A stretch of 55,816 nucleotides of DNA, filler included, from Sphacelaria rigidula (GCA_964200075.2; 6 parts of 6 records of this genome joined end to end with filler, not necessarily neighbours in it), one strand, 5' to 3'; counted from the first letter of the whole stretch, positions 1-28,690 are shown. A program made the numbers and translations. Notes: generated by a model not told the origin, from the letters alone.

Positions 1-208
1 TTCGGCTTCATGCACGAGAACGCAGTACCAGACTCATGCAAAAAATGACCGTCTGTGTACAGAACCGTTTCACAAATCTGTGATACTGTACCGTCTATGC
101 CATAAAATGGTCCCCTCGATTTTGAGTTCGTGAATTTGAGTCCCCCCGATTTTCTCAAAATCGGGGTCCCAAAAAATCGACATTCGTTTGCCATAAAAGT
201 GAGTCTTA

Positions 209-942
209 CGCCGCTCCTCACAACAGACAACAACAAAAATCAGGAAAAATGCTTTTTTGGAGCGTCTACGTCGTTTTACGCCTTAAAAGAGAGTCAGGCG
301 GAGTTTGACACCTTGAAATGACTTGCTCTACTCGTTGGGGCGGTTCCAGGACATCTTGCCGTTCTCCAGTGGCCGTAGTTCTTATTTCTGGCCAAACAAG
401 AACTTTTGGCCAAGAACGGTCAAATCTAGATATAACAAATCGCCATTATTCTATGGACTTGACTGTTCTTAGACAATAATTCTTGTTTGGCCAAAATGAA
501 ATCTGCGGCCACCGGGAAACGGGAAGATGTCCTGGAATCACCTCAACTAGTAGAGCAAGTCATTCCAAAGTGTCAAACTCCGCCTAGCTCTCCCTTGAGG
601 CGTAAAACGACGTGAAACTCCAAAAAGGCACTTTTCCAGATTTTTATTTTGTTATAAAAGTGTTATGTTGGCCAAACAAGAACTTTCGTCCAAGAACGGT
701 CAATTGTTCAAGAGTTGACCTTTTTTTCCCGTTCTTGGAGAAAAAATCTTGTTTACTCGTAGCCAAAATAAAAACTGCGGCCACCGGAGAACGGGAAGAT
801 GTCTGGAACCGCCTCAACGAGTAGAGTAAGTCATTCCAAAGTGTCAAACTTCACCTAGCTCTCTTGAGGGCGGAAAACGACGTAGACTCTCCAAAAAGGC
901 ACTTTTCCAGATTTTTATTTGCGTCTGTTACAAGCCGCGGCC
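209..942. mobile_element. Foldback MITE, PIF/Harbinger (Tourist)-like, with a duplicated right arm
   Basis: About 209-430 is the reverse complement of about 455-660, and a second right arm follows at about 665-942. Termini are (C/G)GCCGCTCCT...GCGGCC, with TTA at 206-208 and TCA at 943-945. Same family as 4654-5095. Confidence 0.75.
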
Positions 943-2804
943 TCATCAGCAGGCATCAGTCTTGCGCGAAAAGAAAAAAATCGGGACAGAATTGGAGGTC
1001 TTTTCATCCCTTGGCGCACTGCTGCTGCAGCGCCCAACCCAAGATCTAGACGCACGGGCGTGCTGATTGTGGTGTACATGACATGATACCGAAGTTTCAG
1101 CGCATAGCAGTCGATACCGTAATGACGTTTCTACAGATCGTCATTATCCAGAGGGTGTGCCAGTACTTATCTGTGTTCGTTTGCCAGCTTTGTACTTTCC
1201 CAGGAGATCATGATGTGGAAGTGAGTGCACAACTATGTCCACATATGCATTCACTCACGGTACACGGAATCTGGGCTTCGAGATAGCCGTTTGGAGGGCC
1301 TATCGACGGTATCTCGGTATTCGCTTAGTTTAAGTTGCTTGCTGGCCGAAAGGAGCTGAAACTTGGTGCACATTCTGCCTGTGTTGTGTCCAACAAGTGC
1401 GCTAACTTGCATGGTGGTCCCTTTGCCCACAGTCGAGAAACGCACAAGCAAAGTTTCCGTACAAAAGCGCAATGATTTTTGTATGCAGGCCAAGTGCGGG
1501 CAGTCACAAATACAGGACGGGCATTATTCGGGTATATTTTTGTTTTCTTAAATGTTCGCGCAAGACTGGCATAAGCAAGGAAACGGTGCGAAACGCTACC
1601 AAGCCCGAACTGAAGATGGAGACACTGTACCGTCTCCATCTCGAGTAGCATTTCTATAGTCTGATGCCCCTTGTGCACTGCACGCCAATGACTACATGCC
1701 AAATCGCACGGGCACAAAGAGAAAACACGCATTCTGCTATACTGCGTGATTACCAAAACAATACTTTCCCCCGCTGGGTGGGAGGGATGAGAAAATGAAC
1801 GCTGCCTGCGCTACTTGACGATATTGCTGAATAAGCGCCATTTTGTACTGTCGCTCTTTCTACATCATTGTGCAGCTGACGCTCTTTCTCCTGTCCCTAT
1901 ATCAATCATTCTCCCCTACTGTGCTGAATCCGATTCCTGCTTCGCTGTAATCCGATCGCTGGATCCGTCGCATTATATAACGATTCATCCCGATACACAA
2001 ACCGCAGATCCCGCTACACTTCGATTCTTCACATTCCGAAACGCTGTGGACCGTAGTTCCGCTCTACTCCCAAAAACTAAACAACCCAGGCTTGTAATGT
2101 CGAAATTCTATTACTTCTCTCGCCGCAAGCGACAAACAGACGGTGTTTGCCCCTTCAGCTGTCTCTATTTTCCCACGATTTAGCGAGACATTTTGCTCTT
2201 CCGAAAGGGTCCAGTTCCGCCCCGCGTAATCTCATAAGACAGTACAGCACAGACATGCTTCGCGCTCTTGCGTGTGACTCTCAAGTTCCGAAACAATTAG
2301 CAGCTGATCTTCGGCGCCGGTAGGGTCGATGCCGCAACCGACCAACCCCCCCTACAGGATGGGAGTCTGATGCAAGAATAGGGAAATTAACTATGGCTCA
2401 AGTCACTGGCTTCAGTGGGGTGGGGGGGGCACACCATTCCAACTGCTCTCTGGTTGCTTGTCCCTCGAATGACGAACATCCCGTATTTTCTAACGGGTTC
2501 TACCAAAACGCAGGCCAGGAGCTACCCCCCTGTTTTCTATGAAAACCTCAATATGGACGAGGCCTTAGGGGAGTCATACCCTCGATTTGAGGAGGGGTAC
2601 CCCCCAAATACTCGAGTTAATGGCTTAAGTGGGACAGTACCAGGGGGACCTACCATGTGCACGTCAAGACCCACCCCCGCGTGTCTCAAAAGTGGTCTGA
2701 GGACGTCAAGGGTGTGCTACACCCTTTTCGAGGGAGGGGTCAAACAGAAGAGAACAAGAAACGAGAAACAAATGAACATATTTTGGGAGGTAGAGGTGCC
2801 ACGG

Positions 2805-2909
2805 AAGGCGTCCGCATCAGATGCCCATTACGAATGTACCGCGCAGATATGGGAACGGTTTTTAATGTGAAGACAGCAACAGCAACAGCAACAACAGCAA
2901 CAACAACAA
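2805..2909 (+). mobile_element. Non-LTR retroelement 3' tail with (ACAGCA/ACA)n microsatellite
   Basis: GTGCCACGGAAGGCGTCCGCATCAG...GGAACGG recurs as a reverse complement at about 28690-28756; both copies are followed by CAA-type repeats. Confidence 0.6.
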
Positions 2910-2943
2910 GGGATGAACCGGGAAAATATTTGTGTTCTAGATC

Positions 2944-3030
2944 TTGACCCTTAGACCGCGAGGTTAGTCTTGTGTTGAATCGGCATCAATTTCAAGTGAA
3001 AAAAAGTATGCATGATCCAGAAAATCGACA
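2944..3030 (+). mobile_element. piggyBac-like hairpin MITE, partial
   Basis: TTGA-CCCTTAGACCGCGAGG terminus plus the family core GAATCGGCATCA. Confidence 0.5.
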
Positions 3031-3595
3031 TGTTACCTTACTCACAGGTGCCGACCGCAGTATTGCGTTGGCCAATGAAGAGCCGAATTCCCCTGCTGCA
3101 TCGAGGATCATGAGGATATTAAGGCGTGCGCGTGGTGCGCGAGCCCCCAGCGGCAGAGCCGAGCGGTAATATAGTATTCAGTAGCCAGCGCTATTATACG
3201 ACGCCGGCCATAAACCGGTCGTATAGTAGCAGCTGCTGCACGGTCGTGTGAAAGTAGTGAGTGATCCGACGTGTATCCTTGCGCCAGTGGAGCTGAGGAT
3301 CTGGGGGCTGCTACTCATCGCTGTGACACGCGAAACCGCTGAAACGAGAGTACATGCCCCGAACAAAATGAAAGATATTGGCGAACGTTTGTATGGTGAC
3401 CAATGTAGTCCCGCCGCTGCAGTTGCACACAACTCCGGGCGCCAGTCGTGAGCTATCCAGCAGGAGCTGTATGCTTGCAAGGAAGCAAGGTTGCTTTGAT
3501 TGCGCCAGATGATACCAGTACTGTAGAAGAGTTGTAGGAATCCTCGTGGTTGAACTGTACAATCGTCTATTGTCAGTCTTCGAAAGCCAATACTT

Positions 3596-4097
3596 CACGG
3601 TTAGGACGAATCAAATCGTGATTCAATTCATACTCATCATTCCAACGAAAAAACCATACGATTCGTTTATCATTCGTAATTTTTTACAGGTTTTGAGCTC
3701 TTGAGTCGTGCAGTACACCCTCAACGGTACCTGTTCCCCTACCTTCCGTTTATACTGGGTAGATGATGGGCACATATTTATCCCCTGTGAAAAAATGCGG
3801 AATCAATCGATTGTACATGTTACCCACCCTTAGTTTCATGAGGCGTGAATGGCATGTACATCTATGTCATACGTATAACTCTTGCGGGACGAAGAGTCGG
3901 CACATGGTTGAATCCTCTCATTTCATCGGCCTTGCATCAAGCGTACTTTTTCTCCCAATCTGTAATGCAGTTGAGATGACTGCACTGCATACGTCATCTA
4001 CCGTCGGGTCAATGCGGGACCAACAGCCGGCATATGGTTTCACCCTCTCATTTCATGAGGGGCCAACTCGTATAAATCGTGATTCGTCCTAACTGTG
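3596..4097. mobile_element. Non-autonomous TIR element with CAC termini (superfamily unassigned)
   Basis: TIRs CACGGTTAGGACGAATCA (3596-3613) and TGATTCGTCCTAACTGTG (4080-4097). A homologous inverted copy lies at about 17870-18255. No clear TSD. Confidence 0.7.
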
Positions 4098-4653
4098 CAA
4101 TATTTGGGCCGTTCCTCGTCTGATGACCGGAGACGAAAAAGTATATCCCGAGCTCAATTATTCGCTGGGGATACCTACACGGGTGTTTCATTGTCCGCTA
4201 TGTTTATGTAGCCCTCCGCCAGCAATTCGATGGGGTGGCTATACAGCGTGGGAGAGGGGCAGGGACGCTTGGACGCTTGGATCATAGCCAACAGTAAAAA
4301 CTGTCGCGGCCTATCGCTTGAATTACATGTTTCAAGCTTGGCTGTTTCCTTCACCAAGAACGAAAAGATACACGGGTGGTTGGATCGTGTTCTCCGCTTC
4401 TTTTACAGCAACAGCGTCCGGCGCAGGCGATATGAACTCGTGAAATGTGCAGTAGGAGAGAACGTGCTTCGATCGCGCCCAGCATCTTGGACTGCCGCCG
4501 GCCACAGCTCCAGGCATTTGTCTCTGAAAACTGGGTTACTTATTTCGTGTGCAGACGACCTACTGTGTTCCTCTCTTGAATGAAGTCACTGTTCAAGAAG
4601 CTGTCCCGCAAGACGCAAGATGAATGAATTTTGTCAAGATGATTTCACCCTTC

Positions 4654-5095
4654 GGCCGCTCCTTATAACAGACAAAAAGAAGAAAAAAAAAAGCTGGTGA
4701 AGTGCTAGTGGAGTTTGGCACCTTGGAATGACTTGCTCTACTAGTTGAGGCGGTTCCAGGACATCGTCCCGTTTCCGGCGGCCGCAGTTTTTATTTTGGC
4801 CAAACAAGAAGTTTTGTCGAAGAACCGTAAAAAGGTCAAATCTAGAAAAAATCACCACTTTTCTCTGGACTTGGCTGTTTTTTACTGTTCTTGGACAAAA
4901 AATCTTGTTTGGCCAAAATGAAAACTGCAGCCACCGGAAAACGGGAAGATGTCGTGGAACCGCCTCAACTAGTAGAGCAAGTCATTCCAATGTGTCAAAC
5001 TCCGCCTGGCTCTCTCTTGGGGCGTAAAACGACGTACAAGCTAAAAAAAAGGCACTTTTCCAGATTTCTGCTCTTGTCTATCATAAGGAGCGGCC
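4654..5095. mobile_element. Foldback MITE, PIF/Harbinger-like, nested in a piggyBac-like MITE
   Basis: TIRs GGCCGCTCCTTATAACAGACAA and TTGTCTATCATAAGGAGCGGCC, flanks TTC and TTA, long internal inverted repeat. It splits CCC|TTA|GACCGCG of the host element (4644-5200). Confidence 0.8.
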
Positions 5096-5966
5096 TTAGA
5101 CCGCGGTGCGGGCAGTCCATCTAGATCACGCATACTTTTTTTGCAAGTAAATGTTGATGCCGATTCAGCAGATGACTTTCCCTCGCAGTCAAAGGGTTGA
5201 GGCGAACAGGCCTGTCGAAGATTTTCACGGGGAAACACGTTTTTTCTAGCTATCCGCGTGTTGTACGGCCCTCGAGTAGTTATTTCCGAAAATGATATCA
5301 TCTTCCGACTAATATGTGTGAGAAAACCCCGTGTGAGCATGTATGGCGTGCATGCACGCAAGAGCTCTTTGCTGCGGCATCTTGATGACATGTGTGAGAG
5401 TTACACGTGACTTGCAAACCGCCTCCTGCCACCTGGGCCATCTTCGGAGACCTATCATTGTACCATTCTGTCATCTTTTGGTGGGCAATGATTGAATTGG
5501 TCGCTCAAGTTGGTGTAGGTGACGATACTCGCTCTCCTCTCCACCCCCCTCTCCGAAGCCAAGGCCATGACTGAAAAAAAATACTGGCCAATCAAACCGT
5601 CGATGCAGCGAGCGGTCCCAAAGACATCGAAGATTGTTTAGAATAGTGGACCACCAATCCCAATATTTCGAATGGGGCGTTTTTTTAGAAAAACAAATCC
5701 GGTGTGGATGTATACTCGGGGACGGACCATGATCCCGTCCAATGAGTGATGATGACTTTTAACAAATAACGCAGTCTATTTTTCAAGGGTGGGAAAAAGT
5801 GAACGAAAAACCCTGCTGGCGAACATTTGATGTTGCTCATCTTGCGACTCTTGGAAGCGCGGGAGCAAAGGGGGTTTCGTCCTCGGGAGTTCACGATTTT
5901 GCTTGCGTGCGTGGCTAGCAACGCCGGCATTGGGAGTTCCAACACGGAGAACTCAAAGCCTAGTAC

Positions 5967-6350
5967 TGTGTGTGTTGTGTGTTGTGTGGTGTCCTCCCGA
6001 TTACTCTGGACGACAGTCGACACCAGTCGGTATATGCCGGCGCATCAACCGGGGTCACACAAGAAGAATGCCAACACGAGAGCTCCTTTTGTTTTTATTT
6101 GTTTTAGCTCTCTACCCTCCTTTTGGGGTGCTTTGCTTTCTTTTTATCGCGAGAAGGGTTATTGGACCTTTTCCCTCCTCGACCGTGAAGTCGACCTTTG
6201 TGTACTCACGACACAGTCGCTCTCCACTCTACGGTGGGGCATGGTGTGTGAGAACAAATCCCAGATCGTGCGACTTCACCGAGATTCGAACCCACGTCTC
6301 AACCGTCAGAAGGATTCGGGGTTACCAATTGAGCCACCGGGGCTACCAGG
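5967..6350 (-). mobile_element. tRNA-derived SINE
   Basis: Minus strand has an A box TGGCTCAATTGG (6325-6336) and a B box GGTTCGAATC (6283-6292), a CA/CAA-rich tail at 5967-5990 and a TAGTAC direct repeat at 5961-5966 and 6351-6356. The 3' part recurs at about 7515-7605 (+) and 9132-9220 (-). Confidence 0.8.
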
Positions 6351-6682
6351 TAGTACGGAGGGGTGTTTTACTCCGTCGTCTTCTGAGTATGATCTACGCC
6401 ACACACGACGTGTACATCGCCTCCACGGTGTATCTACACCAAAATATTCCCTCAAAGCGACCCCGTGATCTCCATTGCGAGCGCTCCTGGACTGTCTACT
6501 GGTCATGTTTCATTACGGTAGCCGGTAGTTCTTGATCACGTGACGCTGTGTCGTTGTGTTTGTGGCTAGTAAGTCGTTCATGATGTGACGCTGCCATCAG
6601 TGTGTCTGCGACTCTCTCTTCGTCTGTTTGTCTTCCTGCCCGTCTCGCTGTTTCTCACTGTTGTCACTCTTTTCCCCTCTCC

Positions 6683-6750
6683 TGTCCCTAGCTTTGTAGG
6701 GATGCGAGATCAACCGTCATATGACTACGGCTCGGAAGATCACAAGTACT
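6683..6750 (+). mobile_element. 5'-truncated LINE tail, C-tract family variant 2
   Basis: GGGATGCGAGATCAA...ATGACTACGG...AAGTAC followed by a C-rich tract. Homologous to 31553-31624, 38747-38814 and 37828-37885. Confidence 0.6.
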
Positions 6751-6810
6751 CTCCCCCTCCCCTGTTCTCCCATCATTCCATGCGACCTTTCCCCCGCTCG
6801 GCTGTAACAG

Positions 6811-6900
6811 GTGAACTTGCGCATGAAACGGAGTGAACGAGCGGGTGCAAGCGATGCTGGCGTCGAACCTCCTTCTACTGGGGCAAGAGAAAATCAGCAG
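6811..6900 (+). CDS. Internal exon A of an unidentified acidic/low-complexity protein
   Basis: aacag| acceptor and |gtgcgt donor, 90 nt, phase 0/0, VNLRMKRSER...ENQQ; splices in frame to 7135. Confidence 0.65.
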
Positions 6901-7134
6901 GTGCGTTGTGAGGTGCCGTACGACGTTTTTTTTTTTTTAATCTCGACTAGTGTGCTACCGTGTACTTGTGGATGGAGCATGATGCAGGGGGGAGCGGACG
7001 TGGACACATAAGATTTTCGGAACATTTTTTGAAGAAAAAATACGGCTGGATTCATTTCGGATCAGTTGAATGTGTATTAACCAGTCGATCGATCTATATT
7101 TTCAATTGGTTGAAATGGAATTCCCTCGGCGCAG

Positions 7135-7339
7135 GATGAAGACGGGTACACCGGTTTTCTGGCGTCGGAGGAGGACGAGGATGGCAAGGGTAACGGAGAT
7201 GCGGCGCCGGGTCGTTTGCTGGAGGAGGGAGGAGGCTCGGATTCGGAAGAAGACGAGAGTGAGGAGCATACGGATGATGACGATGATCAAAGCGGGGAAG
7301 GTGGTGACGACCGAGATGGCGGTGAAAGCTCCGACGACG
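7135..7339 (+). CDS. Internal exon B of the same acidic protein (D/E/G/S-rich)
   Basis: cgcag| acceptor and |gtgaga donor, 205 nt, phase 0/1, DEDGYTGFLASEEDEDG...ESSDD, no stops. Confidence 0.75.
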
Positions 7340-7514
7340 GTGAGAGAAGCAGACACACGTATGTGCCGAAGTGTGTATCTGGTACTGCAAAATTCGACTC
7401 AACGGTCGACGAGGGAAGGGGACTGCTAAACCCCTCTCGCGATGAAAAAATAAAGGCAAGCACCGCAGAAGGAAGGTGGAGTACTAAAAATAAAACACGA
7501 AAGGAAAAACTCCA

Positions 7515-7605
7515 ATGTTGACCTTCCTCCTGTGTGACCCACCCCGGCTGATGCGCCCACATAGACCGAAAGGTGTAGACAGGCGTCCAGAATAGATGAG
7601 ACGAC
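7515..7605 (+). mobile_element. 3' fragment of the tRNA-SINE family (or of its partner LINE)
   Basis: TGTGTGACC...CCGGCTGATGCGCCCACATAGACCGAAAGGTGTAGACAGGCGTCCAGAAT matches the 3' end of 5967-6350. Confidence 0.65.
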
Positions 7606-7970
7606 AGTACGCTGCTGCGTCCTTGCGCGCGTGTGTGTGTGGATGTGCGTGGGTGCGTGTGTATATGTGGTTGTCAAAAGGAAAAGGATCCCTCAAGACA
7701 CACATCGTGTCAGTTTCCCCCTTTTTTGCAGGGTATAATAGTACCCACACGCACACACTTCTCCGTCCCCTCTCTCTTCGTATCCACGTGCAGGTGGGCA
7801 CGCTACCGTGTCCGGGTGCAGAAAAAACACGCGGCGCACGGTTTTTTTTTCAACTTCTGCTCACGTTTGTGCGCTCGTTCAGTGTGTCGGCAGTGTGTGT
7901 TTCGTTTACATTCACTTCCTGTTTATTTTTATTTTTATTTTTAGTTGCTCCCTCGTTTTTAGTTCTTCCA

Positions 7971-8032
7971 CTTGTAGTAGTAGTTGTGGTAGTTGTGGTA
8001 GTTGTTGTTGTTGTTGTTGTTGTTTTTGTTGT
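7971..8032. repeat. (GTA/GTT)n microsatellite
   Basis: Seen directly in the sequence. Confidence 0.9.
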
Positions 8033-8116
8033 TTTCAGATGATTTGTATGCCCGCACAACCATCTCCCATGTCATACCCCCCTCCCATCCTTTTTCGTGG
8101 CCCTGCTTCTCTGCAG

Positions 8117-8325
8117 GTAGCGGCGAGTCTCAGAGCGAGGACGAGGAGGAAGACGGCATGCTGCGGCAACAATCATCATCATCACCGTGGGGGGCAAAGG
8201 CGGGTCTCTCGACAAGGATATTGGGAAATCACCATGGAGACCGGGCCGCTCGCTCTCTTGCGAGGAAATACGAGCAAGACGAGGAAGCTTGTTTCGCTAG
8301 GATAAAAGAGCTTTGGGCAGAACAG
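8117..8325 (+). CDS. Internal exon C of the same acidic protein
   Basis: ctgcag| acceptor and |gtttgt donor, 209 nt, phase 1/0 (compatible with exon B), GSGESQSEDEEEDG...RIKELWAEQ. Confidence 0.75.
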
Positions 8326-8373
8326 GTTTGTGCGTCAGTGCGTGACCGAGTAGCGGATGGGGGGGAGGGGGGG

Positions 8374-8441
8374 CGTACTCATTTGTTGCTTGCCTTAGTC
8401 GTTTGACCATTGACCACGCATCCCTTTCGAGACGGAGCACC
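8374..8441 (-). mobile_element. 68-bp 5'-truncated LINE tail (C-tract family) with a 21-bp TSD
   Basis: GCGGAT-G7-A-G7 is repeated exactly at 8353-8373 and 8442-8462. The insert matches the 3' end of the ORF2-bearing copies at 37314-37795 and 50490-50935. Confidence 0.85.
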
Positions 8442-8759
8442 GCGGATGGGGGGGAGGGGGGGGGATTGATTCGTACGGTATCAGTCAATTACACTACAAG
8501 CGAGTAATTTTCAGACGAACCGTTAGTCGTCCGACCCGCGGAAAAGCGTTAGTTTAAACATTCAAAACGTGAAACAGACAGCGGTTCACGTGCGATATGA
8601 TGTACATCTACTACTGCACAAGACAGTTGTCAATGAACTTGGTTCACGAACTTGGTTCAGTTTTTGCGGTCGGGACGTTCTCTTTTTATTTTGTGTTGTG
8701 GCAGTTGTTGTTGTCGTTGTCATGGATATATATTTTTTTGTTATTTTTTATTACTTTTC

Positions 8760-9130
8760 TATTTTGATTACGATCGTGATCGTGATCGTGACCGTGATTT
8801 TCATCTAGTTCTCACTTTGATCTTGATTTGATTCCGACATTGGTCTTATTGATCTGATTCGATTTTGACTTTGATCTTGGATGTAATTTTGACGTTGATG
8901 ATGGTTTAATTTTGACCTTTGTATCTTGATATTTGATTTTGACCTTTGTATCTTGATATTTGATTTTGACATCTGATCTCGATATTTGATTTTGACCTTT
9001 GATCTTGATATTTGATTTTGACCTTTGATATCGATATTTGGTCTTGATTTTGGTTTTGACCTTTGATTTTTACTCTGATCTTGAATCATAATAATGACAT
9101 TGATATTGATTTTGACTTTCACCTTGATTT
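8760..9130. repeat. TTGA-rich minisatellite, core unit about 26-27 bp (GATATTTGATTTTGACCTTTG[T]ATCTT)
   Basis: At least five recognisable tandem units at about 8905-9065, with degenerate flanks. Confidence 0.85.
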
Positions 9131-9131
9131 G

Positions 9132-9220
9132 CGTGTTGTGTTGTTGTGTGTGTTGTCATCCCATTAATTCTGGACGCCAGTCTACACCTTTCGGTATATG
9201 TGGGCGCATCAGCCGGGGTC
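9132..9220 (-). mobile_element. 3' fragment of the tRNA-SINE family, cut by the contig end
   Basis: Matches 5967-6058, including the (CA/CAA) tail. Confidence 0.7.
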
Positions 9221-9320
9221 NNNNNNNNNNNNNNNNNNNNNNNNNNNNNNNNNNNNNNNNNNNNTTAATTAATTAANNNNNNNNNNNNNNNNNNNNNNNN
9301 NNNNNNNNNNNNNNNNNNNN
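9221..9320. other. Artificial contig spacer (N44-TTAATTAATTAA-N44)
   Basis: The same 100-bp linker with stops in all six frames also occurs at 18541, 27860, 37179 and 46498. Confidence 0.98.
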
Positions 9321-9593
9321 TTGACCGCTGGTCCAAGGGGTATCCACGCAACTTTTGCGCCATTCTAGGTGTCTAGGCTGCGTGTACCTGGGTTGCAACG
9401 CTGAAAACAGAGCCTAGGGATTGGTTGGTACTAATCGGATCAGCTATACTAAAACCACGTAATTTCCAGACGAATCATTATCTGTCCGACCCTTGGAATT
9501 CATTGACCACTGGAGAAACCGTGGTCTGGAATTTTTTTCCCTCTTGCTGAGTCATGCGATTTTTGTTTTATCTCGTGCACAACGTTCGCGCAG

Positions 9594-9949: not shown

Positions 9950-10794
9950 TTCACGTGAAACCCAGACGATCAAACTGGCGATGAAAGGGTAAGCCCGCTG
10001 GGTGCTAGACCTCCTTTCGGAATAGAACCATTCGCTGCCTTTTTGACCTCCTGCCGGAAACCCCGACGCCGAAGTTGAACTGCTCCTTTTTATTTGCGAG
10101 TATCCCCCCCCCCCCCCCTCTCCTAACCACAGTGCCGACCATAAGATCGCATTTCCTGGATCCCGACTTGTAATGGGTTTATATCGTTAATCTCAATGTA
10201 GTTCATTTGTCACAATCTGTGAGCGGGCGATCTGGGGGCGATCCGTGACATGTGGTGCCCAAGAGACTCAACCCTTGGATCAACAGGGTGATTCATGCCG
10301 GGTATTACCGTCATTATTCGAGTACAAAATGATGCGGGTTTAACATATGACCAAGCTTGCGGTCGTACTGTTGACTCGAAGACCCCAGAGCTCTGGGGAT
10401 CTTGACTGCAGTGGACATTGTTCGCATATCGAAAGTGGACCGACATGAGCTCGCATTGACACAAATGTAATTCGATGAAGCAAGTCCTGCAGCGAAAGGG
10501 TTCGACGATTGACGCGAAATTCAGAACAATTTTAAGGCCTTTTGAGTCATTCCCCCTCCCACATTTTCAAGATTCGTCAACCGACGTCTCTCGAAAGGGA
10601 GAGCCCACGAGTGATGAAAATCTGCACCAACTCTTCCGCTTAACGTTGAAACCTGAATTTGGGGGGTGGTTGATGGGTGAACCTATACTTGCGAGATGCG
10701 AGAATTCACTTTTTTCAGAGTACTTCCTGTCATGGACCAGGAGCAAGGGTGTACGTCGTGTTTGATAAGTCGGTGGGACGAAGTAGCACACGTG

Positions 10795-14063: not shown

Positions 14064-14241
14064 GTAACGGTTGATCGGTTTATACTTTTTTTTGACGCTT
14101 CCAATTCCTTCCCTCCTCACTCGAAGTCATGCGGTAGGGACCTGTCGAGTCTTCATTACTCAGCGCTGGTGCTAGATGTTAGTCTTGCGCTGCTGCTGTT
14201 CTTCCGTTCCCCTTTGCTCCCCCTCCCTGCCCCCCCCTCCC

Positions 14242-14307
14242 GCGCCCCCTCGAAAAGGGATGCGTGGCCAATGGTCAAACGACGGAGACAAGTAGCAACT
14301 GATTGCA
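14242..14307 (+). mobile_element. 5'-truncated LINE tail (C-tract family)
   Basis: CGAAAAGGGATGCGTGGCCAATGGTCAAACGAC... flanked by CCCCCCCTCCC at 14231-14241 and 14308-14318. Confidence 0.75.
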
Positions 14308-17300
14308 CCCCCCCTCCCTTTTTTTCCAGTTTACCCTGCTCTCCTATCTTTCTCCATTTTCCCCCTTCTGGAGTTTCTTTCAGCATGTATCCCTGTTTTT
14401 TACCGCAAGTACCTTTACTTCGAGACAAGTGCTGCGTTTCGAAGCGGCTCGGTCCATGTGGGACAATCAGCCAATCAAGCAATTACGCGTTCGTTCGTTT
14501 TTGTGGAACTGGTAAGATCCCGGGAGGTTGGAGGCACCAACACAGGCAATGGGCCAACCACGGACACCTCACGCTACTGGGGACACGCTACAATCTAGGC
14601 CGAGCGAAGTCGCGAGCTAGGAAGGAGCTGATCGACAGCTACGTTTTCAAGTAGGTTCCGTTCCCACCTATAAAGAGCTTCGGGTGTTTGTTTTATCACC
14701 CCTTTACTGCTGCAGGATTTTTTCGTTGTTTCTCATGTTCGAACGTGCTGTGGCACGTAGCTTCATTTCCACAAACGGTTTACTGCCGCAGGCGCGTCTA
14801 CCGTACAGTTGTCCTCAAGATACGTGGCATGGTTGTTCCGTACGGGAATGCAAAGATTGGAGTACAGCAAGACCGGCCGTGGTAGTACCCGGAACAACCG
14901 AACAGCAACGATATGGCCATACTGTAACAACAGATACACCAATGCGGCGTGTCACAATCTCACTTCAACATGACGTCATTATATCGCGGAATCGATCTTG
15001 TGCAGGAGAGGGCCTGCGTCCTCACACCAGACCTTGGCCTTCACCGACGCTAAGCGCTGGCGTGCCCCCGGCCTGTGGATGATGATATTTGGAACAATAT
15101 CCATCGCATTCTGCTTGGTAATCGGCAACTTCCAGCCCAGGTGAGACCTGTGACAGCAGCGAGCAGCTTTGACCGTTATCCGGTATGACGAAATTTGAAC
15201 ATGTGATCAATTATGAACTTGAGTCGACCTTGTCCCCGGAGAAACTTCACTTGACCTCTTGAGCTGACTCTGGATATATCGATCAATCATCAGGGATATG
15301 TATTAAAACGAATGCTTTGACGTCGTTCACAACGCCATATTTTTCATGGACCAGGGATCGGAGATTACCTAGAGCGCAGGTGATATGTGGACGTCAGGGT
15401 TAGGGCTGCTCCTCGCTAGTCGAGAGAAGCTTATTAAGAAAAGCGTACAGATATTGAGATCCGACGGTACTGTCCCGAGAGGCGAGTCCGCTTCCGATGT
15501 ATCGATTGAGAGAAGAATCTTGCCCCTGCTGCATTTCGTGGAGAGCTGTGCAAAGTCGCTGTGTAAATACACACAGTAGTGGGCGGCCTAACCAATCATT
15601 TTGTGGAATTGTGTGCTTTCTTCGTGATTGGCGATTTTCTTGGGCTCTATTTGCTTGCCACCGCGTATCACTTTGGGGATCTGAAGGTATTTGTATCCGT
15701 TCCACATTCCAACTTTCATCTGTACACGGTATTGAGTGACTTACGGGCTGACCGGTCATCGGGGGTCCTGCCACGTTTTAGGCAAAATTCTTATCCTTCG
15801 GTATTCTCGTTCGATCCAGCTTGCCCCGATCAAATTTGTGGAGAAATGTACAGTTTCATTTTTTTCAAAATTTTACTTACTCATGACACTAAAGTCGAAA
15901 AACAGTGTTTCAGACTCAGTAACACCCTCCTGATGAACGGGGTATTCACTCGTATCGTGCGATAACACCAACTGACACTGACTTGGGTACTGTCTTTCGA
16001 AGATGATCTGTTTGTACCAAAATCTACTGACGCTGCCAATTTCGAGTTCGATCGGAGAGTGGTACGCGAGGGAAACCCCCAAACGCCCCTGAACAGTTTG
16101 ACCTCCCACTACTGTATTCTGAAACCCACCCAGGGAAGCAGCACCAGTACTGGATCGTACATGGCGGCTTCTGGTTCACCGTCATGAGTGATGGTTCACC
16201 GAAAGACCTTGAAATGAATTGCTTATCAAAGTTCTGAACTCAGGTGTGGCCCTTTGTACATCATACACATCGGTTTGCATCCGCACTGAGCAAATCTTTC
16301 AAAACATTGCCTACGGCATCCTGCTTGGTTACGACTACAATTCAGCTTCGCTTGCGGTCTAGCAGGCGCGCCGCCGAAGTCATGATGCCGACGGTCCTCG
16401 GAATGGAAGAAAAACTGCCCCTTCCCTCAGAGGAGTCCCCAACACGACGATAAAAGCGAAGAAGGACAATACTGTCCGTGGTTCACAACCGTATCGTTCG
16501 TAACTGTTTGACTGCCCAGGCGTGTACCATATGTTGAGTCCGGCATGATGAAAAAATGTGATCAGACTCGGGTGTTCATCTCGTGGCGCTGATCGGGATA
16601 GGGACGGAGGCCATAAAAATCTCAGATGAAGAAGATGTTCATGTGCACACTCCCAACGTTGTGTCAATCCGTTGTTGTCTGTTTGCACTTTCTCACCCGC
16701 CGCGGCCAGACCGAAGGTGAAGAAAGTGAGCTGAGTGATGCCTTCGGAGCCCCAGGGCATCAATTCCTGGGCCCACGTGTCGCGATCCACGGCACAGTGC
16801 ATGGCTACGAGTGTTTCGGTGTACGTTGTGGCAGTTCCAACGGCATCGAAGGTACTGCCGTATTTTTTTATATGTGTTTTTTCCTGCGTACAAAGCCACC
16901 AGCCTGCAGCTACAACAGGTACCCAATAGTTTCGAAGAATGCTTTTCTTTCTTTTCTCGAGGTGATGGTGCAGTCGTAAGTGCTGGCAGTGAGTTCCTGC
17001 TACTCAAGGTACAGAAAATGGGCGGCGGGTTGATATTCCACGACTGGGTTGAGATATATGGAGAAAATGTAAGCCATTGAAGGCGGGGTCAGAGGGATCT
17101 GTGAGAGCATTTCGAAGTGACCTTGGGCTGAAAACGAATGAGTGAGCGGTTCGACTGTTGGCAGGATTTTCTTGAGATGGAAGCGGTGATGCGAATTTCA
17201 CGAATTCGTCCTGTTGCAAAGTCGACGGGGTGGAGTTGTTGGTATTCACTGGTGGTGGGTGATGGTAAAGTGGGAACATCATGTCACGGTCTTGCAACAT

Positions 17301-17869: not shown

Positions 17870-18255
17870 CCCAGCTAGGACAAATCAAGATTTATACGAG
17901 TTGACTCCTCATGACATGACAGGAGTCAACCTGTATTCAAGTGTTGGTCCCGCATCCACCCGACGGTGAATAAAAAATGCAGTACAGTCATCTCAACCGC
18001 ATACAGATTGAGAGAAAAGTACGACCGATGCAAGGCCCATGTCATGACAGGATTCATGCACGCCTCATGGTGAGTGTATGTGGCATGTACAATCAACGCA
18101 TTCCGCATTTTTCCACAGGGGGTCAACTTGTGTCCATGATCTACCCCCAGGTCTTGCTCCGTCTCGAAAGGGATGCGTGGTCAATGGTAAAATGACCAAG
18201 GCAAGCAACAAATGAGTACGCCCCCCCCCCAATGACCTGGAGTAGGTACCGTTGG
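17870..18255. mobile_element. Second, inverted copy of the CAC-terminus element, interrupted by a LINE tail
   Basis: Reverse-complement homology to about 3720-4097. Confidence 0.7.
18155..18220 (+). mobile_element. 5'-truncated LINE tail (C-tract family)
   Basis: TGCTCCGTCTCGAAAGGGATGCGTGGTCAATGG...ATGAGTACG followed by C10; CCCCCA lies upstream at 18144-18149. Confidence 0.8.
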
Positions 18256-18540: not shown

Positions 18541-18640
18541 NNNNNNNNNNNNNNNNNNNNNNNNNNNNNNNNNNNNNNNNNNNNTTAATTAATTAANNNN
18601 NNNNNNNNNNNNNNNNNNNNNNNNNNNNNNNNNNNNNNNN
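18541..18640. other. Artificial contig spacer
   Basis: N44-TTAATTAATTAA-N44. Confidence 0.98.
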
Positions 18641-19559: not shown

Positions 19560-21660
19560 TTCACTGTTGTGCATTATTGTAAAACTCCCTGTAAGATATG
19601 TAATTATCATTTCCCGTCTAGCAGCATGGCACTTTTAGCACATTGTGTCATTTTCTTCACCGTTCTGCGCAACTTTCCTCTCATCCCAGTTTCTCGCAAC
19701 TTGTTCCACAGCCCATTTCTACATACTGTGTGCCATACGCTTCTTGTACGTCCAGAAAGAAACAGTACGTTGTTAACCCGATGTATTTCCTACCCTGCAT
19801 AATCTTACCTAGTGTGTACACATGGTCTAGGCAACTACGGTTTGGTCCAAATCCTACTTCCTCCTCGCTGATTTTTTCTTCCGTTTCTAGCATCGTTCCT
19901 ACTTCATCGTTCAGCACCTTACAGAACGTTTTCCCTACTGTGCTCAGTAGCGTTATCCCTCTATAATTCCCTGCGTCGGCCTTGTCTCCTTTCTTGGAAA
20001 TATTGACTACTACTCCTTCTCTCCACCTCTTGGGTGTATACTCATTTTTCCCTGTCCAGTTATACAGCATAACCATAATGGTAATAAATCCATCCCCCCG
20101 ATGCTTCAGAAATTTGTTCACTATTCCGACTGCCGCTGCTGCCTTTTTGTTCTTGAGTTTTGCTACGCACTCCTTGATTTAATCTCTGGTAAAATATCTC
20201 CGCAGTTTTTCTGAGCTATTGTCCGCCCGTTTTGACGCCTCTGAATTTTCTTCTTCTGCCCAATCGTTGATCTTTTTTTCGAATTCCGTGTTGAAGCTCG
20301 TGTTAGTGTTTGGTATTCCTAGTTTACGATAGTGCCCGACTAGTACTTCCCCCTTCCCTTTCGAAGTACTGTTCATTTTCCCGTTCTGTGCCCATAGTGT
20401 GGCTATCCCGTTGTCTATACCTTTCTTGCCTGGTTTCCTATAATCCCTTTTATGCCCACCCACACTTATTTCATCCCGCCATCGAAATCTTCGTTTGTTT
20501 TTTCATTACACCTTCCTATGCTCCCTTATATTTCTTCTGCACGATCTCTTTTACTTCCTTTCGAGCTTAAGTATACTCCTCCCGTCCTCCCGTAGTTTTG
20601 CTCGACATACATCTCGCGTAGGCATCTCTCCTTACCCTTTCAGCTTCTTTCTCTTCCTCATCCCACCACGTTACTGTACTGCTGAATACGATCAGCTTCT
20701 TCCCTATGAGTTTACTCGCTGTGTTCTTGACCAACCGTTCCCATCCTTCACGATCTTTGCTTCTACTCGATGTATTTCCATTTCGGTATCAACTGTACCC
20801 ACGCGTCCCAACAGTCCGGAAACTTTCACTGCGTTTTGACCACCCCTTCTTGGAATCCTTGTTATTATTCTTCCACTTCTAGTTTACCGATTCTCCAGCT
20901 GTACAATCTTTTGCCCCGGCCGCCTATTTCTCTCAGCTCTCGTCTGTTGGCTTTCTGTTCATATTAGGCAGTGGTAGTTCCCACGTTCTCCGCGCATATA
21001 TATATATATACGTAAATTTCTTACATTTCCATGTTCTACCACCAAATAGTCAAGAACGGAGCGTCCTCTTCCGTCTTGGCGGTCTCTAGTCCATGTCCAT
21101 TGTACCTCTGGCTTGAGTATTTCATCGTTCACCGTCTTCATCTCGTTGTGCTCAAGAAATTTGGGCATTTCTATACCATTCGTGTTCTTTTTATTTTCCC
21201 CGTATTGCCCGATGATATTATCCGGTTGACCTGCTTCCCTTACCCTTGCATTAAAATCTCCTGGAAGCACTACTTACCCTTGCACTTTATACTGATGTAC
21301 TGTACATCTGCTGCTATCTCTCCAAACCTCCGTTGTATATCGTTCACCCTACTCTTCGATTCTGGGGGCATAAAGATGTTCCCTACAAAGCAGCCCTTTG
21401 TTCCCCGCTCTCCTGGTACTCCTATCCATACGCTCCCATCGAATTTGGTGTCGTCGATCACTTAGATAATGTCACCCAGGTATTCCTTGGCTAAGACCCT
21501 TACTCCCCTCGCTCACCTGCTCTTGTGCTTCTTCCCCTTCCGCTTTCCCCCTACCCATGCGTACTCTTCAACTTTGAATCCTACTTCCGCCCCCTCTTTC
21601 TCCCATGGCTTGAATTCCTATTATATCTAGGTCGCGCTTCCTAACTTGTTGGCCTATCTC
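19560..21660 (-). mobile_element. Decayed LINE ORF2: apurinic endonuclease plus N-terminal half of the reverse transcriptase
   Basis: APE motifs LDIIGI, GDFNARV, NTNG, WTW and SVLDY (about 20960-21640). RT motifs WREGVVVNISKKGDKADAGNYRGITLL, GFGPNRSCLDH and FLDVQEAY (19681-20121). Frameshifted. May extend upstream to about 22790. Confidence 0.92.
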
Positions 21661-23082
21661 TAATATTTTGTGCTTGTCTGTGGTGAAACTTCCTCCCCGA
21701 ATGATCATCTGCTCTCCTGTTGTCTCCTGTTCTTTTTCCGTGCCTTTTACTTCTACTTCCCTTTTCTTGATTGTTCTGCCCCTTGCCGGTTTGGTCTTCT
21801 TCTAGTTGCGTCCGGCCGCTATGTCTCCTCCCCTTCCCCTCCCGGGTATTTACCTGTTCCGGCGTCTCTTTTCCTCCGTTTGCCCGTGCACTACGTCTGA
21901 GGTTTGTCATTCCGTTAGCAATGCAAACTCTCCACCCTACCCTTGTAACCCATGCCGATACTGTACGTGTTTCTATCCTTTCCCAGTCCTCCCTCGCGCT
22001 CTGTTTTAGCGTGACTTGAAGGTGTTCTTTCTCCCTTGCTATTTTCCCTCTTGCCAATCAGTATAGCCCAACTCCATCGCATTTCCTTTGAGACTGTATC
22101 CTCGTCATATCGCTACGGAATACCGGCACTACGAGTACTTTACCCGACCGCCCTCTACTCCTCCATCCGCCCTTCCTTACCGTCTCTCTCTCGATCCCCT
22201 TCGAGAGAATCTCCAGCTTGATCGTTTTGATTGTATTGGTGGGATATCTTCAACGTACAGGAACATCCCAATCCTAGTACGTGTTGCGGGTCTGTTGCCT
22301 TTCAGTTATTTTGGTGGCTCACCGACACTGAATGATGCCTCCAACATGGGCTCGTAGCCTGAAGCCAAGTTCAACACGTTTGACATAAGTATCCCCCGTT
22401 TGTGCCAGGCGATCTTCATGCTACATCATCCACGTGTGCCACCATCGCATCTTCGTTTTTCTTGCCCCGCTGCTGTACAGGATACTTTCCTCCAGGCAGG
22501 CCATTCTCACCGTGTAAGGTTCGAGGACGGCTTGCATAACACAAGGTCTTACTCACACCGGGATGTCCCGTACACCACTCTTCCACTCCGTGTACGATTC
22601 ACCATGGTGGGTCGCGACTCCACTGGTGCTTCCGAGTAGACCTTCGCTGCCGAAAGCTCGGCCAACGATTCCCCCACACTCTGTACCAGCTTCTATCCTA
22701 CATGATCCCAAGGCGTCCACATACCGCTTGGTGCTCCTTCTCGAAGATCATGTGGACGGTCATCGGTGAGGTGTTTGTTTCATGAGTGCAGTAGCGGGGG
22801 GGGGTAAGCAGGTCACAAGGACGGTTTCGACCAGCGGTGTGAGCTCACAGAGTCGGTAGAAGGCGTTAAAATAGTATTTACACGATCGAGGGGCAAAAGG
22901 CCGACGAAATCGTCATCGGGAACCGTCACTGCAATCGTGGGGAAAGCACTGTTTCGGGCTTGAGACTCATTTTTGTGATCAACCTTATTTCATAGAGTTG
23001 TCTCGCCCTTCATAAAGCGAGGTTTAAGTCCTCGCTCGTGGATACGATATGCCGCGTCTAGTTACTAAACCCGATGACATTG

Positions 23083-24100: not shown

Positions 24101-26423
24101 GGAAATCGTCCAGGACTGGTGAAAAGGGTCACGATCATCTGGGTTTGAATAAAACGCTGTTGTTTGCCGTTTTCTGATGAGGTACGTTCATGTTCAAAAG
24201 GAAGTCAGGAAGTAATTACCGTTGCTTTGCGCTTATGGGACTTGTTTTGCTTTCCATTTAGTCGTACTTATTATCTTTGCTCTAGTTTGGTCTTTCGGAG
24301 ATCATTCCTGCATGGTGGCAGCGGATATACCAAGGCTTGTTCACTTTAGCATCCCTTCTTGAGGTTGGTAACGGTAACCATGGTATCTAGCCACCCTGGT
24401 AATGTACAACCACCTTCGGATGTTGACGGGTCATACTGCCACTCACCGGTATAGAAACCAGTCAGCTTTGTAGTAATGCACGGTGGTTTTTAGATGGTTA
24501 CGGGCTACCCTGGTAGTCATTGGCACCGAAGCGTAAAAAAAAAAGCTTGAAAAAGGAACGCCATCCAAGAAGACAAACGTCATCCAACGAGATAAAAACG
24601 AAGCAGAACTGCGAGCAAAAAACCTACTATGATCTTGTAGGTTCTGAATCCACCACCTAACCACCGGAGATCGTACACGCTTACGATTGTACTACTGAGG
24701 TGACGTGCTGTTGACTGACGCATATGGTTAATTTCGTATTACTCTGCTACAGCAAATGGGAGCAGTACATCTGCGCCGTTTGTTCGGGTGGTAGTGAAAA
24801 AGCACAAGAAGACCATGTTTTGCTTGGGAAGTTTTTGGACGGGAATGGGATGATACTCCTTACTCGGTGACGATCTGGATGGGAGCGGGAGAAAAACATT
24901 TGCTTGGTAACGGTTTGGATGGGAACGGTAATTCCGATTCATCTTGCTTACCTCCCATTTCCGTAACGTCCCATTATTTCCCAATCATCATGGCTACACC
25001 GCGGAAAATCCCACGTGAAAAAAACATCAAGTTAAAGTGAGGTGGGGAAAACGGCAGTTTCCCAGCGTTTCCCGGTGGTAAAATGATACAACCGAATCCG
25101 CTAGGTCGCGAAAAACTGGCTTCGATTTCCGGTTAACGCGTGTGTGTGTTTCCTGTAGAATTTCAGTCGTTGTTAGTGTGAGGGAGGGCTTGAGTGGTAA
25201 GACGAATTTATTCCATGAAAGTCGACGCGATGAGGAGGTAGGTGCCGATGATTCAGTCCGCAATGTCAAATTGCGAGGAGGGCGTGTATCCGTTTTAGTT
25301 GTTTCCCCTACAGAACGGTAAAATGGTTAGTATTGCGAGGCGGGAAAAAACGTACCAGTAGAGCGCTGCCGAAAACTATCATTACCAACGACTAACAAGA
25401 AACTACACGCAAAATTCAAGAAAGAAATCAACGCGTGCGTAACGGCAAATGTAGAGGTATCGAAACGGGAAGGTGGTGGATCAAATGAGTTGCAAAGAGA
25501 GATTATACAAGAGAGAATTATTAATGGAGTGTGTCGCTAAACTCAAGAATGTAAAGGCAGCGAGGGCAGGCGAAATAGTTGTTGAATTCATTCAGTACGA
25601 AGGAGATGGAATGCTGAACATAATGATGATTGTGTCGAATGATTGGATCTAGGAACACGAAGCATTCACATCCAAAAGGTGCAGAGAAGGAAGGTTAGTA
25701 TGCTTTGTCAAGAAAAGAAATAAACAAGGCCAACCCAGAATGTTTTTTCTGTAAACCATTGAACGATAGAGTGGAAACGATGCCGGAGAAGGAAGAAAAC
25801 ACCATCGAGGAACACGTGGAGTTTAGACCAAACCCTAGCTGTCTGCGTAGGCCGTGTGTACACATTAAGCAAGATTATTCAAGGTGAGAAAGACGCCGGG
25901 CTGACAACGTACTCTTTGTTTCTAGACGCCCAAAAAGGCTCTGACAGCATGGAGAAGTGGTCCGCGGGAAAATATGTGAAAAGCTGGGAAAAGAGGGAAG
26001 ATGCGGAGAATGGTGAAAATGTAACAGAATGGGCGAGAAATGCCCTAATAATACTAGATGGGGAAATGTCCAAATATGATGATTACTCACAAGGAGTTGC
26101 ATAGGGGTGCACGTTATCACCCACTTTATTCAAGGTCATTTGCATTGGTAGTGACACAGGAGCAGCAATGCACGGAGTCAGGGTAGAGGAAGATAAGAGG
26201 TATTTGAACTGATATTCGCAGATGAGTTTGCGGGGATATTAGAAACACCAGAAGACTTGCAGAAGCAAATGGAGAAGGCGATAATACACCAGGAAATAGA
26301 TAGTGACAGCGAACGTAAAACCATGCGCGGTACTTGTGTGTACGAGCATAAAAAACACCCGGTAGAGTTCAAATGGACGTGGGAAGAAGAGGAAGTGCCG
26401 ATCATAGACCAGTATACGTATCT

Positions 26424-28641: not shown

Positions 28642-28690
<49 letters not shown>

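Follow-up and report, generated by a model that had tools for sequence, protein, structure and literature searches.

In the brown alga Ectocarpus, the RTE-X group (RTEX) is the most abundant group of long interspersed nuclear elements (LINEs), with 16,418 copies accounting for 3.41% of the genome (PMC12477816). In the respective rows of Supplementary Material 3 of that study, RTEX-1a (5,867 bp) is annotated as having a 'single EN-RT ORF; (C)n 3'', i.e., one open reading frame (ORF) coding for an endonuclease and a reverse transcriptase (RT), together with a 'C-rich' target-site duplication (TSD), and RTEX-2 (5,582 bp) as having '(C)n termini/TSD'. The same table lists the short elements RTEX-N1 (607 bp; '60 bp 3' end 83% RTEX-1/RTEX-2'), which 'can be present in tandem', and RTEX-N2 (188 bp), with a similar 3' tail and again a 'C-rich' TSD. 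In these rows the curators treat the (C)n as the 3' terminus of the element itself, and they did not find the origin of the RTEX-N1 head; in the main text of the paper the term 'C-rich' occurs 0 times and the mechanism is not discussed. RTEX-1 has, moreover, been reconstructed in Saccharina as well, and the RTEX clade is defined in Repbase by RT phylogeny. Here, we describe a family of short repeats in a stretch of 55,816 nucleotides from the genome of Sphacelaria rigidula (GCA_964200075.2), referred to as the window in the following, and in particular the copy at 8374-8441. With a probability of about three in four, these repeats are dead, 5'-truncated copies of a brown-algal LINE of the apurinic/apyrimidinic endonuclease (APE) type, most likely RTE-X, which inserts by target-primed reverse transcription at C/G tracts and is accompanied by partners sharing its tail.

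A preliminary description of this DNA, made from the sequence alone, had regarded such a target preference as undescribed. However, the entries '(C)n 3'', '(C)n termini/TSD' and 'C-rich' TSD in the rows of Supplementary Material 3 of PMC12477816 show that it is already on record for Ectocarpus in the form of a table note, and that the element considered here is a catalogued kind in another brown alga. What is added here is detail at the junctions, namely the position of the nick, the occurrence of micro-copies, a 3' untranslated region (UTR) of 5 nt and a recurrent 5' start. Apart from the Ectocarpus table, nothing was found in the literature on poly-C or C-tract targeting by a LINE, and no published mechanism was found. 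A poly-C match in a Blepharisma paper concerns the terminal inverted repeat (TIR) of a DNA transposon and not a LINE.

The copy at 8374-8441 lies on the minus strand and comprises the last 20 codons of the LINE ORF (GAPSRKGCVVNGQTTKASNK), the stop codon TGA and the bases GTACG. In a tblastn comparison it matches amino acids 1341-1360 of the full-length protein P0002 (95%), and it differs in 1 of 68 bases from the tail of a metagenomic copy (L029). The minus strand of 8353-8462 reads CCCCCCCTCCCCCCCATCCGC / GGTGCTCCGTCTCGAAAGGGATGCGTGGTCAATGGTCAAACGACTAAGGCAAGCAACAAATGAGTACG / CCCCCCCTCCCCCCCATCCGC, i.e., a 68-bp insert between two 21-bp direct repeats. The TSD copy on the element's 3' side (8353-8373) reads CCCCCCCTCCCCCCCATCCGC on the element strand, and the one on its 5' side (8442-8462) is identical over 21 bp and preceded, in element orientation, by two more Cs (8463-8464).

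When the whole window was scanned with the 18-nt tail core GGGATGCGWGGTCAATGG, allowing for up to three mismatches, 10 matches were observed as against 0.10 expected, a number reached by 0 of 100 shuffles. In element orientation, their 3' ends read ...(A/T)GAGTACR or a decayed form thereof (6750, 14307, 18220, 31624, 38814 and 50935 on the plus strand; 8374, 37314, 37827 and 48341 on the minus strand), and beyond these matches there are a diverged variant tail at 50290 (minus) and micro-copies at 46697 (plus, 9 bp) and 42825 (minus, 25 bp). At 10 of the 13 ends at least six of the next eight bases are C, the window background on both strands being 0.83% (binomial P ~5e-19), and at 11 ends at least five are. 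The C-run is weak or missing at three ends: 37827 (TATCCCTCC..., C-rich but with no clean run), 42825 (CCCCGAGG, C4) and 38814 (CCCCCTTT, C5). C-rich sequence follows all 13 ends and an A-run, as in the poly-A tail of an L1-type LINE, follows none (0/13). As the C-run lies on the element's sense strand for every copy, seven on the plus and six on the minus strand, a strand-specific sequencing artefact is excluded. An nhmmer search of the window with a hidden Markov model (HMM) of 11 full tails gave no further copy above noise, the 11 found being the input by construction. The earlier claim that about ten copies of one tail end at a C-run is thus borne out by the 10 pattern matches and the 10 of 13 C-rich ends. 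Its ten coordinates are a mixture: 8374, 37314, 37828 and 48341 are indeed 3' ends, whereas 6683, 14242, 18155, 31553 and 38747 are the 5' starts of plus-strand copies, and at 50490 there is actually a 5' junction rich in Cs, belonging to the copy with its end at 50935.

The window consists of six pieces of ~9,220 bp joined by linkers of the form N44-TTAATTAATTAA-N44 at 9221-9320, 18541-18640, 27860-27959, 37179-37278 and 46498-46597, spaced by exactly 9,319-9,320 bp, so that features touching these points are cut by the construction of the window and not by biology; in the genome, the pieces do not have to adjoin one another.

The longer copies at 37314-37763 and 50500-50935 carry a Cys/His motif (CGKAIESRTHIVAEC), as had been noted before, and an ORF that runs into the tail. 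A protein search with this ORF led to P0001, and a search with P0001 to full-length proteins of 1,360 and 1,328 amino acids with an APE and an RT domain. The proteins P0002, P0003 and P0004 end in ...GAPSRKG(C/R)VVNGQMTKASNK, which is the peptide encoded by the 68-nt tail; the tail is, in other words, made up of the final 20 codons and the stop of one endonuclease-reverse transcriptase ORF of 1,360-1,382 amino acids, plus 5 nt. Because the tail encodes the C-terminus and the stop of this protein, the stop codon lies 5 nt from the end of the element (...AAATGA GTACG). Mapped to the window, P0002 matches two decayed bodies (22180-19568, amino acids 1-879; 25346-27404, amino acids 618-1064) and all tails. 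An intact copy on a 5,259-bp contig (G001:C43; locus L123) has an ORF of 1,382 amino acids with Exo_endo_phos (APE) at 193-437 (E 8e-11) and RVT_1 at 763-1012 (E 7e-32), a layout with which the precomputed Pfam domains of P0002 agree. Its 3' end is TGA-GTACG-C13, and that of L029, a marine metagenome contig, is TGA-GTACG-C8. The element is therefore an APE-type non-LTR (long terminal repeat) retrotransposon with an AP-like endonuclease N-terminal to the RT in one element. The link between tail and APE-RT, which the preliminary description had called indirect, is now direct by virtue of the full-length proteins and the intact copy of 5.2 kb. Its copies show a common 3' end, variable 5' truncation and TSDs of 8, 11, 17-18 and 21 bp.

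In the B variants of the tail (31624, 38814, 37827 and 6750) and in the C variant (50290) the core and the end are kept, while there is an in-frame stop or a non-coding body, and these variants are likely to be non-autonomous partners sharing the LINE tail. The conserved core looks like a recognition signal at the level of the nucleic acid. As Rfam returned no family at gathering score for the whole window, neither the B and C variants nor the 66-nt unit show the tRNA-, 5S-, 7SL- or snRNA-derived 5' head of a short interspersed nuclear element (SINE). A retroposed small RNA was likewise discarded as an explanation of the 68-nt unit, since this unit represents the 3' coding end of the LINE ORF.

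A scan of genome contigs with a 28-nt tail pattern gave a single match (L120), on a contig that stops short of the element's 5' junction and hence offers no TSD. This locus and L123 belong to the same G001:C43, i.e., an intact LINE of brown-algal type resides in a bin titled as an uncultured bacterium metagenome-assembled genome (MAG), and the bin is evidently contaminated with host DNA. A metagenome scan with an 18-nt tail pattern gave at least 119 loci, of which 1 of the 119 listed (L029) has the rest of the tail, the others being chance 18-mers; scanning viral contigs with the tail pattern gave 0 matches. A PDB sequence search revealed generic RT similarity alone, to L1 ORF2p and R2, which is uninformative as to the clade. 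Around residues 320-340 of P0001, its C-terminal ...CLLYTSPSPRDATLSRMPSSA is unlike all relatives and presumably represents translated sequencing-adapter read-through at the contig end.

By comparing both junctions of the copies by script, four exact TSDs were found: 21 bp at 8353-8373 and 8442-8462 (C7TC7ATCCGC), 17 bp at 46672-46688 and 46698-46714 (18 when an ambiguous C is counted), 11 bp at 14231-14241 and 14308-14318 (C7TCCC), and 8 bp at 42850-42857 and 42817-42824 (CCCCGAGG). The first three had been recognised before, the second of them as 18 bp. Each TSD consists of a C-run first and then of unique bases (ATCCGC, AGGGATT, TCCC and GAGG in the 21, 17-18, 11 and 8 bp cases, respectively), and the base 5' of the upstream copy is a C in 4/4 cases, with 2, 6, 1 and 1 extra Cs in the same order. 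Since the 5' copy of the TSD has its C-run upstream of the duplicated unique bases, and thus away from the element, this run is neither the element's tail nor an addition at the junction, and the C-tract was already in the target before insertion in these four clean cases. Furthermore, as the TSD starts with the C-run and the preceding base is also a C, the bottom strand was first nicked between two of its Gs, in agreement with the nicking in G-runs that had been proposed. The C11 at 28044-28054, at the 5' junction of an RT fragment where a C-run had also been reported, and the C-rich 5' flank (50490-50499) of the copy at 50500-50935 fit a C-tract in the target as well. Beyond the C-run the flanks are unrelated (ATCCGC, AGGGATT, TCCC, GAGG), whereas a site-specific LINE would show conserved flanks on both sides. 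What the window thus displays is an APE-RT LINE with 5' truncation, TSDs of 8-21 bp, C-tracts as targets with the nick inside the G-run, and a fixed 3' end 5 nt past the stop codon.

At one site there is a hint that the 3' C-run is not purely target-derived. The copy ending at 18220 sits in an older repeat of which an uninserted, ~80% identical paralog exists at 3620-3840; the paralog reads CTAC-CCAG (C3), the 5' flank of the filled site CTAC-CCCCAG (C5), and the 3' junction has C10, which suggests by comparison with the paralog that, in this one case, some five Cs may have come with the element. The target tract of the 8374 copy, in turn, lies exactly where another repeat (8463-8544) breaks off. 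This repeat resembles 45626-45708 and 9343-9501, and because both of these paralogs run on without a C-tract, the tract is itself secondary and possibly a relic of an earlier event. The repeat in question is rich in palindromes (...GATTCGTACCGTACGAATCAATCC...; 8463-8544, 9343-9501 and 45624-45784) and possibly is a miniature inverted-repeat transposable element (MITE).

The remaining copies differ widely in length (9, 25, 66-71, 106, 436 and 450 bp) but have one common 3' end. On the plus strand there are a decayed B-variant tail at 6686-6750, followed by CTCCCCCTCCCC; a decayed 66-bp tail at 14242-14307, whose 11-bp exact TSD reads CCCCCCCTCCC; a tail of ~70 bp at 18150-18220, followed by C10 (18221-18230) and with a weak TSD of 6-7 bp (CCCCCA); a B-variant tail at 31557-31624, followed by C6; a B-variant copy with a non-coding body at 38658-38814, which contains an N gap (38737-38746), is followed by C5 and is 88% identical over 38658-38731 to 50379-50452; a 9-bp micro-copy (CTGAGTACG) in a C-tract at 46689-46697, with the TSD C10AGGGATT (17-18 bp exact) and six more Cs before the 5' copy; and a 436-bp copy at 50500-50935 which covers the ORF C-terminus (P0002 amino acids 1244-1360) and is flanked by GCCCCCTCC on the 5' and TCCCCCGC on the 3' side. 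The minus strand carries a 450-bp copy at 37314-37763, encoding the ORF C-terminus with the CCHC motif (P0002 amino acids 1207-1360) and followed by CCCCCTCTC10; a decayed B-variant tail at 37827-37891, with a C-rich flank but no clean run; a possible 25-bp micro-copy at 42825-42849 (...ACGAGTACA), with the 8-bp exact TSD and a C23 tract just upstream; a copy of ~106 bp at 48341-48446, both flanks of which are C-rich; and the variant-C copy at 50290-50452, with a body like that of 38658-38731 and the end ...TGTGTTGGCCT, then C10.

Of the larger bodies, 19568-22180 (minus, decayed) contains the N-terminus, the APE domain and most of the RT and lacks the 3' part, with C9 at 22796-22804, ~600 nt upstream and just before 5'-UTR sequence homologous to L123; 25346-27404 (plus) is also decayed. 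The RT-C-terminal fragment at 27961-28054 (minus) matches P0002 amino acids 1036-1059 over 27961-28032 and has C11 together with TCCCCACC at its 5' junction, while its other end falls on a piece boundary (27959) and is not a biological one. The 5' starts at 8441, 14242, 18150-18155 and 31557 lie within 3 nt of one position (GG|TGCTCCGTC), 66-68 nt from the 3' end, and the same start recurs in a large class of contigs genome-wide (loose ends at 8439), so that it is either a truncation hotspot or the start of a distinct mini-element.

For a genome-wide view, Logan contigs of four runs (X1, X3, X4 and X6, from three studies) were placed on window positions 1-9220 at 92% likeness; all counts of joints and loose ends given here are counts among the rows listed. 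In X1, the summed word depth amounts to 5.1 million in the bin of the tail, in contrast to ~60-80 in single-copy bins. Beyond the 3' end of the tail, the loose-end consensus continues with 10-17 further Gs on the plus strand, which correspond to Cs on the strand of the element (X1, 174 contigs; X4, 183; X6, 25), and beyond this run the sequences are heterogeneous (agreement 0.35-0.44). Beyond the 5' end of the 8374-8441 copy, most contigs run into LINE sequence (348, 282, 236 and 51 contigs), while a second class starts at the same point and is preceded by T and a run of 22-24 Gs on the plus strand (139 contigs in X3, 140 in X4). In addition, joints going back by 81 (12, 11 and 3 contigs in X1, X3 and X4) or by 77 (8, 8 and 4) were seen, and from these fixed distances it follows that units separated by C-runs stand in tandem.

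As to its affiliation, the named protein relatives of the ORF are Ectocarpus proteins with 48-64% identity to P0001, and the features annotated for the RTEX-1/2 type, as far as the table rows give them, all recur here: a single EN-RT ORF, a (C)n 3' terminus, a C-rich TSD and short partners that have the 3' 60-100 bp in common with it. Judging by relatives and matching annotated features, and not by an RT tree, the family would most likely belong to the RTE-X group, like RTEX-1/2 of Ectocarpus.

Several other explanations have to be weighed against insertion of such a LINE into C/G tracts. That the adjacency of tail and C-run is a mere by-product of a genome rich in C/G homopolymers, or a poly-G sequencing artefact, might be thought of because the window contains 21 C or G runs of at least 9, about half of them with no recognisable tail alongside. 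However, the binomial P of ~5e-19, the C on the element strand in all seven plus and six minus copies, the same junction in two outside assemblies (L029 and G001:C43) and the embedding of the runs in unique sequence are incompatible with it, and it is the only alternative that we firmly reject. A DNA-level origin of the arrays and of the many C-run-flanked 66-nt units, by unequal crossing-over or minisatellite replication slippage, would agree with the fixed periods of 81 and 77 in three runs and with the large contig class that has one fixed unit start preceded by T and 22-24 Gs (139 in X3, 140 in X4). In turn, the dispersed copies of the window have differing flanks and individual TSDs as well as many lengths (9, 25, 66-71, 106, 436 and 450 bp), so that amplification of this kind, unlikely on the whole, could explain the arrays only and not the dispersed family.

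More improbable still is that the C-run is nothing but the element's own simple-repeat tail, comparable to (CAA)n in RTE and (CA)n in CRE elements, in which case the sites would not be C-rich and the C-rich TSDs would be misread tails. Although the (C)n given as 3' terminus in the Ectocarpus table rows (PMC12477816), the ~5 more Cs at the 3' junction of the 18220 copy than in its 5' flank (paralog C3) and the many copies with runs well over 15 in the loose-end consensus would suit such an origin, the 5' TSD copy also carries the C-run in the four clean cases, away from the element's 5' end. To this are added the C11 at 28044-28054 and the C-rich 5' flank at 50490-50499, and the same curators, in the same rows, also write 'TSD C-rich'. 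An intermediate position, with odds somewhat below those of amplification at the DNA level, is taken by targeting independent of RNA pairing, where the endonuclease or a structure of the G/C-tract (G-quadruplex, i-motif) directs the nick and the RT starts at the RNA end irrespective of homology. This is how reverse transcription starts in R2. The nick inside the G-run in 4/4 cases, the 3' junctions with no visible extra Cs in 4/5 cases and the intact APE domain in L123 would be expected from it. On the other hand, all copies end at the same base (GTACR) directly against the Cs, and many copies have long runs, as the curated consensus has its (C)n (PMC12477816, table rows). Both points are easier to understand if the Cs are in the template or copied reiteratively, the balance not being decisive in either direction.

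Returning to insertion at C/G tracts by the APE-type LINE, the junctions show a first nick between two Gs of the bottom strand, which leaves a primer ending in ...GGG-3'OH, and a second nick 6-21 bp downstream. We infer that this primer anneals to Cs terminating the template RNA. Such Cs might belong to the (C)n of the element or, if transcription reads through, to the C-run that follows the source copy, and reverse transcription would then begin precisely at ...GUACG. Priming on a G-run by a C-ended RNA is plausible. Since the non-coding partners keep GGGATGCGWGGTCAATGG although it is coding in the LINE, the template is probably recognised through the conserved last 60-70 nt of the element. 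If some Cs are added with each insertion, the family would itself make C-tracts that serve as new targets, and this would explain the tandem arrays of unit plus C-run and the many long C/G runs. Taken together, the G-run nick, the pairing of the C-end, reiterative copying of Cs, self-seeded landing sites, arrays and a genome filled with C/G tracts would amount to a homopolymer-C counterpart of the poly-A system of L1, a proposal that we make tentatively and that falls a little short of being probable.

A number of observations weigh against this picture. No RNA 3' end was seen, so that base-pairing between the G-ended primer and such an RNA is a deduction, and the 3' C-run is shorter than the 5' one in 4/5 TSD cases (7 vs 9, 10 vs 16, 7 vs 8, 4 vs 5), which gives no sign of added Cs; homopolymer lengths in short-read assemblies are unreliable and differences of 1-2 C carry no weight. 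Added Cs are seen at 18220 alone, where the TSD of 6-7 bp is weak and the 'empty site' is an 80%-identical paralog and not an ortholog. An empty allele of the 8374-8441 insertion was not found, as the X1, X3 and X4 contigs listed all enter the copy from the unique flank, and contigs at this position break inside the repeat. Hairpins predicted for six tail sequences are as stable as shuffles (z -1.24 to +0.59), so that a stable tail structure is without thermodynamic support. Finally, 416 joints and 3,144 loose-end rows lie outside those listed, and both membership in RTE-X and identity to RTEX-1/2 come from relatives and described features rather than from an alignment to the RTEX-1/2 consensus or an RT phylogeny.

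With regard to the host sequence around the copy, a 5,396-nt contig of X6 (a run labelled as RNA as a guess only) covers 6809-6896, 7131-7338 and 8116-8325 and skips 6897-7130 and 7339-8115, the skipped parts having GT..AG ends, which indicates a spliced host gene on the plus strand at 6809-8325. The tail at 8374-8441 lies antisense in the next intron of this gene, 48 nt past the donor site at 8325/8326. An exon of a methyltransferase of the UbiE/COQ5 type (Pfam E 5e-6) is found at 49481-50077 on the minus strand, with its best named relatives in Ascophyllum (78%) and Laminaria (76%). Together with the Ectocarpus relatives of the LINE ORF and the label 'algae metagenome' of one run, this exon points to a brown alga as the host. 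Pfam comparisons covered 178 of the window's 188 ORFs with a length of 85 amino acids or more and yielded one RVT_1 fragment, this methyltransferase exon and three weak matches (DUF3413, Sedlin_N and ApoO); the remaining 10 overlap with arrays of simple repeats (8808-9155 and 51080-52940).

Other repeats of the window also end in simple sequence. A second retroposon tail family, represented by 2796-2909 (plus) and 28642-28755 (minus; 83% alike), consists of ~62 nt (...CCACGGAAGGCGTCCGCATCAG...GGAACGGT) followed by (CAA)n/(AAC)16 and matches the '(CAA)n 3'' given in the table rows for RTE-1/2 of Ectocarpus (PMC12477816). The 76%-identical copies of a further repeat at 29245-29405 and 29416-29579, with long A/T runs inside, have their minus-strand ends ...GAAGGAGAAA and ...GACGAGAAACT against C18 and C21, respectively, and may represent a further non-autonomous family with a (C)n end. 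Orphan C/G runs of 9-22, i.e., runs that lack a recognisable neighbouring tail, are located at 10104-10118, 43373-43382, 46429-46438, 48777-48798, 39902-39910 and 49840-49848, examples being GCGAGTAT beside C15 (10104) and C10 with A9 behind it (46429); insertions that were aborted or have decayed may have left them behind.

The value of the family as a discovery is limited by the (C)n end and the C-rich TSDs already recorded in the Ectocarpus table rows. It does, however, provide a natural test of primer-template pairing versus endonuclease specificity in the target choice of LINEs, and as its homopolymer cannot come from polyadenylation, the RT must copy Cs that are encoded or read through at the RNA end, or make them by slippage. 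Being extremely abundant in the runs compared, the family is probably the source of many long C/G tracts in brown-algal introns, and such tracts can form G-quadruplex or i-motif structures. For annotation, it explains many orphan C/G runs as well as insertions of 9-70 bp that repeat maskers would miss.

Amongst the known systems, L1 elements have a poly-A tail, a T-rich nick site (endonuclease consensus TTTT/AA) and TSDs starting with As. The family described here would follow the same logic in that the RNA ends in a homopolymer able to pair with the one exposed by the nick (the pairing being deduced here), the TSDs start with the homopolymer, 5' truncation is frequent and partners are mobilised. 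It differs in that the homopolymer is C and not A, and therefore cannot come from polyadenylation, in having one ORF and almost no 3' UTR, and in a template that probably requires the last 60-70 nt (the stringent type); the RT is only distantly like that of L1 (phmmer E 6.6e-21 to human ORF2p over the RT domain). LINEs of the RTE class were reportedly described by Malik and Eickbush in 1998 as having very short 3' UTRs of short repeats. In the table rows for Ectocarpus, RTE-1/2 carry (CAA)n and CRE-1 (CA)n (PMC12477816). With the RTE class, the present family shares a very short 3' UTR and a simple repeat behind it, but its repeat consists of one single base and is present in the target as well. 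Insertion into repeats or specific sites is known from R1, TRAS/SART, the Tx1-clade elements Kibi, Koshi and Mino, and Dong at (TAA)n, and initiation in R1 and SART1 is guided by target sequence that has been read through at the 3' end of the RNA. Common to these and to the present family are the insertion into simple sequence that is regenerated by the new copy, so that head-to-tail arrays can arise, and the possible use of a read-through flank for primer pairing; unlike theirs, its target is a short dispersed homopolymer instead of a defined gene or an extended microsatellite, there is otherwise no relationship between the flanks, and the clade is a different one. Closest in description, according to the table rows compared, are RTEX-1/2 and RTEX-N1/N2 of Ectocarpus, with which the element shares the single EN-RT ORF, the (C)n 3' end, the C-rich TSDs, a 3' tail of 60-100 bp in common with short non-autonomous partners, the tandem arrangement, a very high copy number and a similar length (~5.5-5.9 kb for RTEX-1/2; outside copies here on contigs of 4.9-5.6 kb). 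It is set apart from them by its host, another brown alga (host exon 76-78% to Ascophyllum and Laminaria), its probable identity with RTEX-1/2 being drawn from their description, and by four details that do not appear in the RTEX table rows compared, namely a nick within the G-run, a 3' UTR of 5 nt, micro-copies and a recurrent 5' start at GGTGCTCC.

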